A DNA stretch of 64,000 nucleotides from Candidatus Melainabacteria bacterium. Its GTDB lineage: Bacteria; Cyanobacteriota; Vampirovibrionia; 2-02-FULL-35-15. Under the pieces are notes generated by a model. That model saw only the letters and a list, made by a program, of their open reading frames with translations, did no database searches and was not told where the DNA came from. Positions 26,927 through 33,369 of the stretch are shown here, piece by piece; position 1 is the first letter of the stretch, and each line of letters begins with the position of its first letter. A program made the translations under genes and the position numbers. Where the stretch lies: contig JAHFBG010000003.1 in NCBI GenBank assembly GCA_023250155.1, positions 102,040-166,039 of the forward strand. The letters are read 5' to 3'.

Positions 26927-27271
26927 CTACTTAGGAGTAGCAATTGAATTAATATACCCTTGAGCATTTTTAGACGGTCTTCTACACATATCTACTTCAT
27001 CTCCATCTAAAAGAATCAGCTCTCCTTTTTCTTTTAATTTAAGTGTAACTATGTGAAACTGATTTCGAAAATCTACACTGGAATACAGTCTCGTATCTAT
27101 ATCTTCTAATACATCAGTTAGAGTAACTTTCTTTTCTGAATACCTATGCGTAAATGTTAGTTGTATTTTCTTATTTTTAAATTTATTCAGCTCCAAATTC
27201 GTCTCTTGAGGTGAACAATGGTGAATCCAATTTATACCAAAGTGGTTTCTTCTACTAATGGAAAAATCCAT
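26927..27271 (-). CDS. hypothetical protein
   Basis: 114-aa ORF, last gene of the 29455..33369 operon; no recognised domain. Confidence 0.4.
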   Translation of the reverse strand: MDFSISRRNHFGINWIHHCSPQETNLELNKFKNKKIQLTFTHRYSEKKVTLTDVLEDIDTRLYSSVDFRNQFHIVTLKLKEKGELILLDGDEVDMCRRPSKNAQGYINSIATPK

Positions 27272-27331
27272 AAATATCTCCTTAGCTAATATTTAAAATT
27301 ACTTATAGGATATCAGATTTTTATTAGTAAA

Positions 27332-29454: not shown

Positions 29455-32400
29455 TTACTTCCTAAGTACTACTTTCTGAACCCCCATATTACTTTTTATC
29501 CAGTGTTGAAATAATGGTTCTGAGGTCTGGAGTTTATCTGAATTGCAAAATATTAATGCTGTTCCTCTAGATGGAATTGGCATCCAGGGGACACTGTCAT
29601 CTGTATTTAAAACCAATGAATCAGGTGATTTATAGTCATGTTCTTCATAGGCTGATACTATACAGGCACTAAAGGCTAAGAAATGAAGGTTAGAAATAAA
29701 ATCAGCACATCTGGTTCTTTCTCCAAAATTATCTCTTATTACTTCCTGATTTAAACTCTTCATTAAATCACCAGGAGTAACAGTAGTCAGTTTGTTTCCT
29801 CTATAAAACAAATGTAAGTATTGAGATTTTTTTTCATGAAACCCTGAATAAAGTATAAAAACTAAGTCTCGTAAATTTGCAGCCAATCCATCTATGCCGC
29901 CTCCTTCATTAAGCCACTCTAAATCTACTATGTAATGATAAGGATGACGTTCTGTTGATTCAATGCGTTTACGAATAAGTAGCTTGTTTTCTAGTCTAGC
30001 TGAAAGCTTCCAGTCTATATAGCGCGTATCTTCACCTGGTGTATAGCTAACTACTTTATGAGGATCTCCACTATAAGATTCTGTTTTCATTGATATACCA
30101 AATCCATGTGCAAATCTAAGATAACCTTTTCCAAAAAGTGGTTCTTGCTTAGTACGCATTTTACTAGTTAAAGATTCACTGAGTTTTTTTGCAGCTTGAA
30201 ACTCATTTCCTACCGTTGAGAGATAAGAGATATTAAATCTTGCTCCTTCAGACTCATGCATAATTTCACGAGCTAAAATATTTCCCCAGTAAGAATTGTC
30301 TTGCATTAGTATGTTTGGAATTAGTTTACACCCATCGCTTGGAAAATAAGTAGCATAATCCATTTCTAGTGCAGGCTTATAGGCTTCTTTTATACATAAG
30401 AGCTTATTAAGATCTAAAAACAAAATAGGATCTGCAATAATAGCAGATATAACTCTTAATTCATCATCTTTTAGTTTAGACAACTCATGTTTAATCTCTT
30501 TATAATACTTAGTTTTGACAAAATGATACTCATAAATGTCTTTTAGTTTAGTAGAGTCAATATTTATATCTTCAGAGAAATATTTTCTTAAGTCTTCACT
30601 AAGTCTCTTTAAACTCTTGCCATAAGAGGTTTTAATAAGCATGTCATGTATAACTGTAAAACCATATCTTGTACCTTCTTGAATGTTTTGTTTGACTAAC
30701 TCTTTAGCTAATCCTATGTGTAGCTTAAAATGATTCTCATAATATTTACTTACAGTATTTTCAATAATCTCTTGCCAAAGTGGTGCTTCCTTACTTTCTT
30801 TCCATGATAGTCCACTATGTTGTACAAAGGACTTAATAATTAAATTACTGTTTAAAATACTTTCAAACTGTTCTTTGGAAATCAATTGAATGACAGGTGC
30901 TTTAAATATATTATCTGATGCTTGTGGTTTTATATCTTCTTTCTCTACAGCTTTCTTTGCTGCCGCAGATAGTCTTATTTCTTTTTCTTTTAGAATATTT
31001 TCTATATATGTTTTACCCTCTTCTCCATAGAGCTTGCAAAACTCTATAATTTTAGGATTTATTCTACGGAGGTCTACATATCTACAAGATTTTTTAATAT
31101 ACTCTTTTACATTGTCTGGTAGGGTTATAGGTTTTAATTTTTTTGTAGTTTCAAGTAATAAATCTAGAGTTTTATCATCAAGAAGTGAAAAGTCTTGAAT
31201 TAAATATTCTTGAAGTTTCTCCAGGGCTTTTTTACTTGCTACATACTTTACACCAAGCAAAGGTAATATCAATTTTTCTATCAGATTAGATCTACCAGAT
31301 TTTTCTTTTATTAGAAGAAATTCACTTAAGAGCTGGACTTGAACTACTATTGATTTATTTTTAGGTAGACTTTTAAACCAGTCTAAAAAATCTTGTTTAA
31401 ACTTTTCTGGCTTACACTTCTCAAGTAGTGTAAAAATGGAATGATCATACTTTCCTTTTTCTATAAGGCTTTCTAAGTGAGCACTTAAAGTTCCTCCACT
31501 ACTCTCAAGTTTGGATAATGCAGGGATTATTTCACTAACATTATTGTTCTTCAACCAATCATCCCAATTATTTGTTATATCTGTTAGTTCCTTTATCATC
31601 TCATTTTCAAAATGAAGTTTATACTCATCTATTCTCCATGCATCTGTTCTTTTTCTTAAATCGATTTTTGAATATAAACCTGCTTGTATAAACTTAAGTA
31701 GTAAGGGTGCAGACTCTTTCATTTTTTTCTTATCAAATTCTATTCCCCACATTCGTGATTTTGTAGCTTCAAGAATATGTGGTTCATTATCTATAAAACA
31801 TATAGCTTGTTTATGTCCTACATCAGACCTAAATGACTTACCCTCTAAAGTAAGTCCATGCGCTGAAAGTGTAGGAAATTTTGCCAATCTTAATTCATTG
31901 GAAAGCAAATCTGTTAGATGAACACAATGACCACAACGCATATCATAAAGTGATTGAAAATAGTTTGGACTTTCTTTATAAATTTGCTGTATTTCTTTTA
32001 GTTTTGTATAAATCGGATCAAAGCTTTCAAATTTTTGTCTACAAAGATTTATTTTCATCAAGGGTGAGTTAACATTTTCAATTTCTTTGTCAATAGGTGA
32101 CTCACTCTTAGGAAAATAAAATGGCTTAGTCCAATCTACAAATATATTATCAATTGGTTCTATAGCTGTTTTGTTTAGCCTATATTTTACTGTTTTAATT
32201 TGAGAAGGAACATTATACAGTCTGGTAATTCCAAAATAATCCTGCTCTATTCTTATTCCTTCACTAGATACTTGAGTGTTTTTTTTATCTAAAAAGCTTA
32301 TAGCACTTGCTTTAAAGCCTAATGGTGTAGGAAGTGAAATACATTTATTTGATTTACAATTAGATGCATCAACTGGAATTGTTACATCAATCTCATCTTT

Positions 32401-33369
32401 ACCTCTTTTTTCTAAAGCATTAAAATCCCCATTAAACTCTTTTAAAGCCACTACCTTACTATCCACCAATTGACTCTTATTATCTCCATATTCATTAATG
32501 ACTAATCCAATATGAGTTAGATACATACCTTCTCTTATACCTGAATCCTTTTCAATAGAACCCATTGTTCTTCTATTTCCATATGAGTCATTAAAATCAA
32601 TAACCGTAAGCTCATTTGTTAGATCATCAGGTATAGCATTCAAAGTATTATTTTTTGTAGTACCAAAAGCTTCTTGGGTAGGAGTATATTGTTTTCTTGG
32701 TTTTTTATCAGGAATATTAACTGTAGAAAAACCTTTATTTATCTTTGTTGTAAGGGCATATTGAGTTTGTGTCCTTAAAGATTCTATATAACGTTCAACA
32801 ATTTTTAAATCGTTTATTTTTTCCAGAGACCAATCAACATATTCTTTTGATTGGAAAAGAAAAAGTCTAACTAAATCTTTACTTATTGCTTTGTCATCAA
32901 TTTCATCGAACTTGTTTACAAACTCTGATAAAGAAAATAAATCATCTTGAAAACTTGTTAAAAACTTATTTTCATCTTTACTTAAAGAGATATTTTGACA
33001 AGTCTTGTCAAGAAAAGCAGTTACACCTGAAATGTTTTTGTTTAATAATTTATTTGAGTCTGAAACTTCAAATGAACTTAGTAATAAACAAGAATACGAT
33101 TCTATATCTATCATTCTAAGCTTTTCTAACAACTTGTCTAAAGAATCATTTATCTCTTTGCAGAATAAATTTATATCATTGGTCTTATTTAAAATCAGTT
33201 CATATGGAACAGTAATCCTTTCACTCCAAAAATTTAATGTGGTTGGCTTTTCTAAATTCTTTACTGCTTGAGAGCTAGTAATATCGATAGAAGGTACTGT
33301 AGATAGACTAGCTATCTGTGGTAAAGGATTTAAAGTTATAGGATTAGTAATTGCCATCTTCTTAATCAA
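29455..33369 (-). CDS. large multidomain protein with transglutaminase-like Cys region and C-terminal DUF58 (vWA-like) domain
   Basis: 1304 aa; YTPGEDTRYIDWKLSARLENKLLIRKR matches DUF58 core (R.IDWKASAR...L.VRE); MRCGHCVHLTDL candidate transglutaminase-like cysteine site. Confidence 0.65.
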   Translation of the reverse strand: MIKKMAITNPITLNPLPQIASLSTVPSIDITSSQAVKNLEKPTTLNFWSERITVPYELILNKTNDINLFCKEINDSLDKLLEKLRMIDIESYSCLLLSSFEVSDSNKLLNKNISGVTAFLDKTCQNISLSKDENKFLTSFQDDLFSLSEFVNKFDEIDDKAISKDLVRLFLFQSKEYVDWSLEKINDLKIVERYIESLRTQTQYALTTKINKGFSTVNIPDKKPRKQYTPTQEAFGTTKNNTLNAIPDDLTNELTVIDFNDSYGNRRTMGSIEKDSGIREGMYLTHIGLVINEYGDNKSQLVDSKVVALKEFNGDFNALEKRGKDEIDVTIPVDASNCKSNKCISLPTPLGFKASAISFLDKKNTQVSSEGIRIEQDYFGITRLYNVPSQIKTVKYRLNKTAIEPIDNIFVDWTKPFYFPKSESPIDKEIENVNSPLMKINLCRQKFESFDPIYTKLKEIQQIYKESPNYFQSLYDMRCGHCVHLTDLLSNELRLAKFPTLSAHGLTLEGKSFRSDVGHKQAICFIDNEPHILEATKSRMWGIEFDKKKMKESAPLLLKFIQAGLYSKIDLRKRTDAWRIDEYKLHFENEMIKELTDITNNWDDWLKNNNVSEIIPALSKLESSGGTLSAHLESLIEKGKYDHSIFTLLEKCKPEKFKQDFLDWFKSLPKNKSIVVQVQLLSEFLLIKEKSGRSNLIEKLILPLLGVKYVASKKALEKLQEYLIQDFSLLDDKTLDLLLETTKKLKPITLPDNVKEYIKKSCRYVDLRRINPKIIEFCKLYGEEGKTYIENILKEKEIRLSAAAKKAVEKEDIKPQASDNIFKAPVIQLISKEQFESILNSNLIIKSFVQHSGLSWKESKEAPLWQEIIENTVSKYYENHFKLHIGLAKELVKQNIQEGTRYGFTVIHDMLIKTSYGKSLKRLSEDLRKYFSEDINIDSTKLKDIYEYHFVKTKYYKEIKHELSKLKDDELRVISAIIADPILFLDLNKLLCIKEAYKPALEMDYATYFPSDGCKLIPNILMQDNSYWGNILAREIMHESEGARFNISYLSTVGNEFQAAKKLSESLTSKMRTKQEPLFGKGYLRFAHGFGISMKTESYSGDPHKVVSYTPGEDTRYIDWKLSARLENKLLIRKRIESTERHPYHYIVDLEWLNEGGGIDGLAANLRDLVFILYSGFHEKKSQYLHLFYRGNKLTTVTPGDLMKSLNQEVIRDNFGERTRCADFISNLHFLAFSACIVSAYEEHDYKSPDSLVLNTDDSVPWMPIPSRGTALIFCNSDKLQTSEPLFQHWIKSNMGVQKVVLRK

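Follow-up and report, generated by a model that had tools for sequence, protein, structure and literature searches.

A giant protein with predicted TgpA-like and DUF58-like parts and a pair of orphan proteins with a common N-terminus in an apparently strain-specific block of a Melainabacteria genome

In a 64-kb stretch of DNA from an uncultured member of the Melainabacteria (Vampirovibrionia), a 6.4-kb block of four co-directional open reading frames (ORFs) on the minus strand lies between an eda-like aldolase gene and prpD. It encodes a giant protein and three small ones, two of which begin with nearly the same residues, and this raises the question what these proteins are and whether the four genes work together. 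We call the whole 64-kb stretch the window; it is all of the source genome that was examined. A preliminary description had read the block as an operon of a transglutaminase-like/DUF58 giant protein with two paralogs carrying a common N-terminal motif. Its four co-directional genes running from 33369 to 26927 are all present as minus-strand ORFs, and the two last large ones overlap by ATGA at 28243-28246 (p359 stop/p304 start), as it had reported. The four genes are:

29455..33369, minus strand: giant gene, 1304 aa from TTG at 33369 (1300 aa in the ENA/Logan gene calls, which use ATG 33357)
28243..29322, minus strand: p359, 359-aa orphan gene
27332..28246, minus strand: p304, 304-aa orphan gene, its start overlapping the p359 stop
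26927..27271, minus strand: p114, 114-aa orphan gene with an AAGGAG Shine-Dalgarno sequence 7 nt upstream

At 32% G+C, ORFs of at least 300 codons cannot be attributed to chance, and in all four ORFs of the block the G+C content falls from codon position 1 through 2 to 3 (GC1>GC2>GC3). The block had also been said to differ in composition from the neighbouring prp operon, which does not hold, since the GC3 ranges overlap (0.17-0.24 in the block, 0.19-0.23 in prpBCD); the small difference in total G+C sits in codon positions 1 and 2, and G+C across the whole window ranges from 0.28 to 0.42. The idea of a foreign composition of the block was dropped, its GC3 being the same as that of the housekeeping genes.

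The explanation that we favour, and to which as a whole we give an even chance, is that the block would be accessory DNA particular to this strain, inserted where the eda-like aldolase gene meets the prpD promoter, a junction that varies, and that it would hold two separate units, a giant fusion enzyme and a tagged orphan pair. In the first unit the giant protein would fuse the two non-ATPase partners of a MoxR-DUF58-transglutaminase module in one soluble chain, made up of a TgpA-type domain with a candidate Cys482-His519-Glu534 triad, a helical spacer and a DUF58-like (von Willebrand factor A (vWA)-like) domain lacking the canonical metal site. It would act in the cytoplasm and modify proteins in a cysteine-dependent way, by cross-linking, deamidation or proteolysis, with the helical region and the DUF58-like domain as built-in partner- or substrate-binding modules, and we propose that because these modules are built in, no adjacent MoxR ATPase would be needed. 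The second unit would comprise p359 and p304, perhaps with p114, the pair being translationally coupled, lineage-specific orphans whose 13-residue segment has probably been retained as an amphipathic helix with a Ser/Pro-rich linker that binds one common partner.

The insertion is seen by comparison with ten uncultured Melainabacteria/Caenarcaniphilales-like metagenome-assembled genomes (MAGs) from groundwater, whose PrpD is 75-84% identical to that of the window. The flanks of the block are:

33463..34350, minus strand: eda-like aldolase gene, left flank (Pfam Aldolase, 4e-23), kept next to prpD in the relatives
25491..26867, minus strand: prpD, right flank, with prpB and prpC downstream
26905-26877: promoter-like TTGCCA-17-TATACT upstream of prpD

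In all ten related MAGs the eda-like aldolase gene adjoins prpD or lies at most about 1 kb away, the gap being 30-90 bp in seven. Since the two genes are adjacent or near one another in all of them, the 6.4-kb block is an insertion, and the junction is variable: it carries an insert of 0.7 kb in L010 (at 3465-4103, a PIN-domain toxin with an 84-aa upstream ORF, VapBC-like) and of about 1.1 kb in L008 and L012 (at 8986-9939 and 9013-9942, a second, divergent KDPG-aldolase-like paralogue). The TATACT -10-like hexamer upstream of prpD recurs in several relatives. No tRNA, integrase or flanking repeats, the signatures of a mobile element, were found around the block. Other assemblies carrying the block are identical across it, their sole difference lying outside, and by these sequence comparisons the block is found only in the Melainabacteria genome of the window and is strain-specific.

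Two observations on the flanks may be added. The eda-like aldolase has 295 aa, of which the KDPG-aldolase profile covers residues 25-153, and it has a TMP-TENI-like stretch at 216-261, so that its barrel seems, from the sequence, to be interrupted by an insertion; the gene lies next to prpD in all ten relatives, and the enzyme may belong to the propionate pathway. One related assembly (L009/L086, GCA_964602915.1, CAZRTB01) is titled 'uncultured Gammaproteobacteria bacterium', while its PrpD is 79% identical to that of the window, its eda-prpDBC order is that of the Melainabacteria MAGs and it encodes P0010, a member of the giant-protein family; the Gammaproteobacteria label is probably wrong.

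The family of the giant protein is rare. When 1.84 billion representatives were searched exhaustively with HMMER, 33 matches came back, mostly of 1500-1700 aa and 15 of them below 1e-30, while word-indexed searches with the giant protein and with a 17-sequence family profile returned self-matches only. The closest MAG (L004) encodes a 1374-aa homologue with 28% identity (tblastn, E 1e-43), located after prpC and a UDG gene in opposite orientation. Close members lie in loci of 32-35% G+C, and two come from identified Melainabacteria MAGs. In each of the eight homologue contexts examined, the giant gene is a stand-alone gene surrounded by housekeeping genes, and p359, p304 and p114 have no relatives beside it. 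Neither the window protein nor its close homologues have a transmembrane-like segment or a signal peptide, and searches of PADLOC and PHROGs assigned no defence or phage family to the giant protein or to p359, p304 and p114. In a separate locus (L085) two divergently oriented giant genes are found, at 125-4714 (minus strand) and 5113-10086 (plus strand), encoding 1529 and 1657 aa, of which the second alone is detectably related to the giant protein of the window.

For the architecture of the giant protein we relied on an AlphaFold (AF2) model, based on a 23-sequence alignment and covering residues 250-1304, with an overall predicted local distance difference test score (pLDDT) of 78.6. Its parts and the codons of its candidate catalytic residues are:

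32563..33369, minus strand: N-terminal region, aa 1-269, weakly conserved; the tblastn alignment to the L084 homologue starts at residue 3
31627..32562, minus strand: TgpA-like domain, aa ~270-581, a beta-rich subdomain followed by a transglutaminase/papain-like core, pLDDT ~90
31924..31926, minus strand: Cys482 codon, candidate nucleophile in a GHC motif, invariant in 16 family members
31813..31815, minus strand: His519 codon, GH[A/K]Q motif, invariant
31768..31770, minus strand: Glu534 codon, E-A-T motif, candidate third residue of the triad, where Asp is usual
30163..31617, minus strand: central all-helical region, aa 585-1069, by model secondary structure, pLDDT 40-90
29458..30150, minus strand: DUF58-like alpha/beta domain, aa 1074-1304, with the signature motif YTPGEDTRYIDWKLSARLENKLLIRK at 29947-30048

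The N-terminal region gave sub-threshold Pfam matches only and no recognisable domain. The boundaries of the TgpA-like domain were read from the secondary structure of the model, and its placement on aa 270-581 is our reading, as Foldseek gives no query coordinates. The top Foldseek matches were the two structures of the periplasmic domain of Pseudomonas aeruginosa TgpA, 6g4h and 6g49 (E 5e-7 and 7e-7, probability 1.0), with a template modelling score of 0.58-0.60 on the target over 320-329 columns, followed at probability 0.99 by 3isr, a putative cysteine protease, and 9crn, the Streptococcus pyogenes TglA. Cys482 is the first residue of a helix (model residue 233) and His519 the first residue of a beta-strand (model residue 270), and a Cys at a helix N-terminus with a His at the start of a strand is, as modelled, the papain/transglutaminase arrangement. 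The Cys482-His519 spacing is 37 residues and that of His519-Glu534 is 15; Glu534 is conserved in at least 90% of the members, with Asp in P0006, and Thr536 is invariant. The predicted Cys-His-Glu triad is intact in the giant protein. The transglutaminase-like character that had been proposed from the sequence is supported by the match of the structure model to the TgpA fold, but no transglutaminase profile matched in Pfam, NCBIfam or PDB searches made with single proteins and with two family profiles.

The 'clear DUF58 core' of the preliminary description proved to be a family property more than one of the window protein. The Pfam DUF58 profile (PF01882, vWA-like), whose use as a test had been set beforehand, scored the window protein at 18.7 bits over its full length and 21.8 bits as a C-terminal fragment, below the gathering score of 23.4, and aligned to it at positions 4-36 of 216 only; five homologues pass (P0019 42.8, P0015 32.5, P0017 28.6, P0011 26.5 and P0010 24.1 bits), and 15 of the 26 aligned family sequences match at E<=0.01, the best at 1.3e-12. 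What the window protein has in common with DUF58 is the N-terminal signature Y-x-x-G-[DE]-x-x-R-x-I-D-W-K-x-x-A-R with an alpha/beta domain after it; it differs in scoring below threshold and in reading V-D-L-E-W-L where D-x-S-x-S would sit. In the model this C-terminal domain alternates beta and alpha elements, with weak matches to the vWA domains of Ku and BatB (3ibs) at E 1-2 and a weak match to a phage VWFA protein at E 8e-3, and a nearly invariant Asp1149 is the sole conserved residue at the position of the vWA metal site. The proposal that the protein joins a transglutaminase-like part with a DUF58-type C-terminus was largely right, on weaker grounds than had been stated.

It had further been stated that no MoxR partner is present, and this stands: no MoxR (AAA_3) gene was detected among the 43 ORFs of the window (37 scanned and six with precomputed Pfam labels), nor in the DNA flanking eight giant homologues, of which 0.3-8 kb per side was available. 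The genes PA2875-PA2874-tgpA (PA2873) of P. aeruginosa are an example of the MoxR-DUF58-transglutaminase module. tgpA is co-transcribed with PA2875 and PA2874, and its transglutaminase domain is periplasmic and active (PMC3507681). Among MoxR operons, those of the MRP subgroup are marked by DUF58, and in the PFNA cluster of bifidobacteria genes for a DUF58 protein and a transglutaminase likewise stand together with one for a MoxR-type ATPase (PMC12067865). The giant protein resembles this module in having a TgpA-type domain and a DUF58 signature. Unlike the module, however, it fuses both parts in one chain, which in the family runs to 1300-1650 aa, in the order transglutaminase then DUF58; it carries a helical insert of about 485 aa, longer in the homologues; it has no membrane segments, no neighbouring MoxR and a Glu for the Asp of the triad; and its DUF58 body has diverged beyond profile recognition. 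By matched coordinates, the central helical region of the window protein appears to be about 350 aa shorter than in the 1500-1650-aa homologues. The giant protein differs from TgpA proper in that it lacks a membrane anchor and a catalytic domain in the periplasm. In architecture it is new within the DUF58/TgpA partnership, being fused and soluble and having no MoxR nearby, and its family is rare.

These same observations bear on the alternative that survives best, namely that this is an ordinary MoxR-DUF58-transglutaminase system in which the giant protein is a fused DUF58 and TgpA pair and the ATPase is encoded at a distance. The domain content fits the two non-ATPase members of the module, gene fusions often join interacting proteins, and only 64 kb of the genome is visible. 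However, no MoxR was seen in the window or in any of the eight family contexts, the giant protein is soluble, in contrast to the periplasmic transglutaminase domain of TgpA (PMC3507681), and its vWA-like part has no metal-site motif. We regard a distant MoxR as unlikely, though a reading to be kept in mind.

The second part of the block concerns p359 and p304. We observed that they have the common N-terminus MNSL[G/S]AISGYLRS, with 12 of 13 residues identical, and that it is encoded by a 38-nt direct repeat which is 92% identical (35/38), begins exactly at both ATGs and stays in frame. It is the only notable repeat of the block and the only such pair in the window:

29282..29319, minus strand: repeat copy 1, codons 2-14 of p359 (MNSLGAISGYLRS)
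28209..28246, minus strand: repeat copy 2, codons 1-13 of p304 (MNSLSAISGYLRS)

The similarity of the two proteins fades by residue ~57, with none beyond. Hence the near-identical N-termini on unrelated bodies that had been pointed out are real, while the term 'paralogs' does not fit proteins whose similarity is confined to about the first 57 residues. At the DNA level, identical codons are used at eight of 11 degenerate positions where 4.3 would be expected from local codon usage (P 0.02), and the changes in the repeat are three synonymous and one non-synonymous. Codon identity and mostly synonymous changes together establish shared DNA ancestry with an apparent constraint at the level of the peptide, which favours the option of a 5' duplication that had been offered beforehand. 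This codon identity points to a duplicated 5' segment as the source of the common first 13 residues, apparently kept under peptide-level selection. An explanation of the repeat at the RNA level was tried and rejected, as the two copies gave no structure signal (z +0.9 and -0.4).

We weighed this against a neutral origin, in which a recent partial duplication or gene-conversion tract copied 38 nt from the 5' end of one gene onto the next and the peptide has no role of its own. Codon identity above what peptide selection needs (8/11 vs 4.3, P 0.02), the shortness and direct orientation of the repeat and its place in orphan genes of a strain-specific block all agree with such a remnant. It accounts less well for three of four differences being synonymous, for a repeat that starts exactly at both start codons and remains in frame, and for the weaker similarity up to about residue 57, which by its continuation suggests an older shared module and not a fresh 38-nt patch. 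A neutral remnant seems improbable to us, but not strikingly so.

Judged from its sequence, the N-terminal peptide would fold as an amphipathic helix, with a linker rich in Ser and Pro behind it. Unrelated cargo proteins are known to carry common docking helices, for example the encapsulation peptides of bacterial microcompartment enzymes, and p359 and p304 resemble these, by analogy and in peptide shape only, in having a short amphipathic N-terminal helix with a flexible linker. They differ from them in that their motif was found nowhere else. A microcompartment or encapsulin context was rejected, no shell or encapsulin gene being present in the window. A degenerate back-translation of the motif carries ~42 bits, so that less than one chance match is expected; it had 0 matches in genome, metagenome and viral contig collections, the genome collection being GTDB representatives without the genome of the window. 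Neither the window nor 1.35 Mb of related loci contains a third copy of the motif.

The bodies of the small proteins proved equally isolated. Among 15 billion proteins, p359, p304 and p114 each form a cluster of one, p359 finding only itself in 5.8 billion clusters; none of the three has a significant match in Pfam, NCBIfam, PADLOC or PHROGs, and searches of PDB, phage, viral-contig and metagenome-contig sequences returned no relatives of p359 or p304. The preliminary description had asked whether the motif would be absent elsewhere and the proteins have ordinary housekeeping homologues; the motif is indeed absent elsewhere, but housekeeping homologues were not found. A single-sequence AF2 model of p359 was unusable (pLDDT 36). 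As one of seven fragments, the C-terminal half of p359 gave a match to DUF535 (VirK/YbjX, PF04393) at E 0.026 and 14.3 bits, under the cut-off of 27, co-linear over ~90-100 residues and with a F-I-x-x-L-Q-G motif in common with E. coli YbjX. A five-sequence profile of E. coli YbjX and four plasmid homologues scored it at -0.4 bits and hhalign gave E 0.13, neither confirming the match; the resemblance of its C-terminal half to DUF535 is weak, with membership undemonstrated.

Whether the giant gene and the orphan pair belong to one operon was judged from the spacing of the genes and from one further feature between them:

29416..29443: perfect 12-bp G+C-rich hairpin, 12 nt past the giant-gene stop, without a U-tract

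This hairpin, with -25.2 kcal/mol (z -5.05), is unique in the window, where 0 such are expected by chance, and the 64 kb contain four perfect stems of 9 bp or more, this one included; a scan for canonical terminators did not flag it. It lies in a 132-nt gap between the giant gene and p359, and a gap of 60 nt separates p304 from p114, so that the ATGA overlap ties together p359 and p304 only. The order of giant gene, p359, p304 and p114 is conserved in no relative. A functional operon of four genes appears doubtful from the sequence because of the hairpin and the unconserved gene order, and the operon of four that had been assumed is not confirmed, given the 132-nt gap with its -25 kcal/mol hairpin and the eight homologues that stand alone.

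If the four genes nevertheless formed one unit, the shared helix might dock p359 and p304, as clients, to the helical scaffold or the DUF58-like domain of the giant protein for modification or assembly. The genes are adjacent, on the same strand and inserted as one block; the tag resembles an amphipathic helix with L4, I7, Y10 and L11 on one face and a Ser/Pro-rich linker behind it, the low-confidence model of p359 has a helix at 3-13, and vWA-like domains are known as protein-protein interaction modules (PMC12067865). Set against this, eight giant homologues have no such neighbours, the giant gene is set apart by a 132-nt gap with a strong hairpin, and the tag has neither Gln nor Lys, the residues that a transglutaminase would need. 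We therefore consider docking of clients to the enzyme quite unlikely, and still a little less probable is its more specific form, a self-contained MoxR-free system in which the soluble TgpA-like/DUF58 fusion recognises the 13-residue helix on the two orphans and modifies or assembles them.

The weakest proposal, already raised as a targeting or secretion (effector) signal in the preliminary description, is that the 13 residues route both proteins to an export system encoded elsewhere, and although one N-terminus is found on two unrelated bodies, TatC is encoded in the window at 47141-47953 and some Vampirovibrionia are predatory, we consider it very improbable, as the motif has no match in the three large collections and no third copy in the window or the related loci, the N-termini have no twin-arginine, lipobox or hydrophobic core (highest 19-residue Kyte-Doolittle mean along the entire protein 0.98 for p359 and 1.31 for p304; transmembrane threshold 1.6), no type III or type IV secretion gene was seen in the window, and known type III signals are not sequence-conserved while those of type IV lie at the C-terminus. 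With the motif lacking any match in the genome, metagenome and viral collections, the idea of a general secretion signal finds no support.

Several points weigh against the explanation that we favour, a strain-specific insertion of two separate units. For the giant protein, no sequence profile recognises the transglutaminase-like domain, whose assignment rests on a model from a 23-sequence alignment, and Glu534 replaces the canonical Asp; even in the best homologue the DUF58 similarity is limited to profile positions 1-44 of 216; the vWA metal site (metal ion-dependent adhesion site, D-x-S-x-S at the end of strand 1) is absent, the family reading VDLEWL there; and a MoxR could be encoded elsewhere in the genome, beyond the 64 kb of the window. 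For the division into two units, the hairpin has no U-tract and transcription may continue from the giant gene into p359, and all genes from eda to prpC lie on one strand. For the orphan pair, the selection signal comes from 13 codons, the other available copies being identical, and the role of the N-terminal peptide is one that we purely infer.

DUF58 and TgpA-type proteins are widespread partners of MoxR ATPases, and TgpA is essential in P. aeruginosa, yet the module is poorly understood. A fused and soluble family which keeps the catalytic residues and has no MoxR nearby speaks for physical cooperation of the two proteins, and its membrane-free form would lend itself to expression and assay. 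The orphan pair with its common N-terminal peptide offers a small, clean case of new genes gaining a shared functional tag, of limited general importance because it is confined to one strain.

It may be noted that the window holds further ORFs and elements of interest. Two minus-strand ORFs at 36131-36730 and 36827-37150 (199 and 107 aa) have no family matches and no tblastn match in the related MAG loci. On the plus strand, four tightly packed co-directional ORFs of 207, 163, 203 and 175 aa occupy 51891-54182, none with a Pfam match at E<=1e-4. At 20001-21000 there is a local G+C peak of 0.42 against ~0.32, in or beside a 441-aa ORF (19704-21029) with no Pfam match, and the peak has neither an Rfam nor a tRNA match. 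A 600-aa ORF at 10319-12121 (minus strand) gave a sub-threshold match only, to ArdA (antirestriction), with 18.2 bits where the cut-off is 27. Three paralogous AAA_14/DUF4143 ATPase genes were noticed within the 64 kb, at 17871-19112 (plus strand), 21533-22759 (minus strand) and 62665-63897 (minus strand), and such genes also occur in the related MAG loci (L086, 19019-20176). Finally, a c-di-GMP-I riboswitch aptamer was detected at 58811-58988 on the plus strand with 58.8 bits, the gathering score being 35, and it immediately precedes the gene for a subtilase (Peptidase_S8), 58993-60432; as the match extends over 178 nt and the model has 87 positions, the aptamer contains a large insertion.

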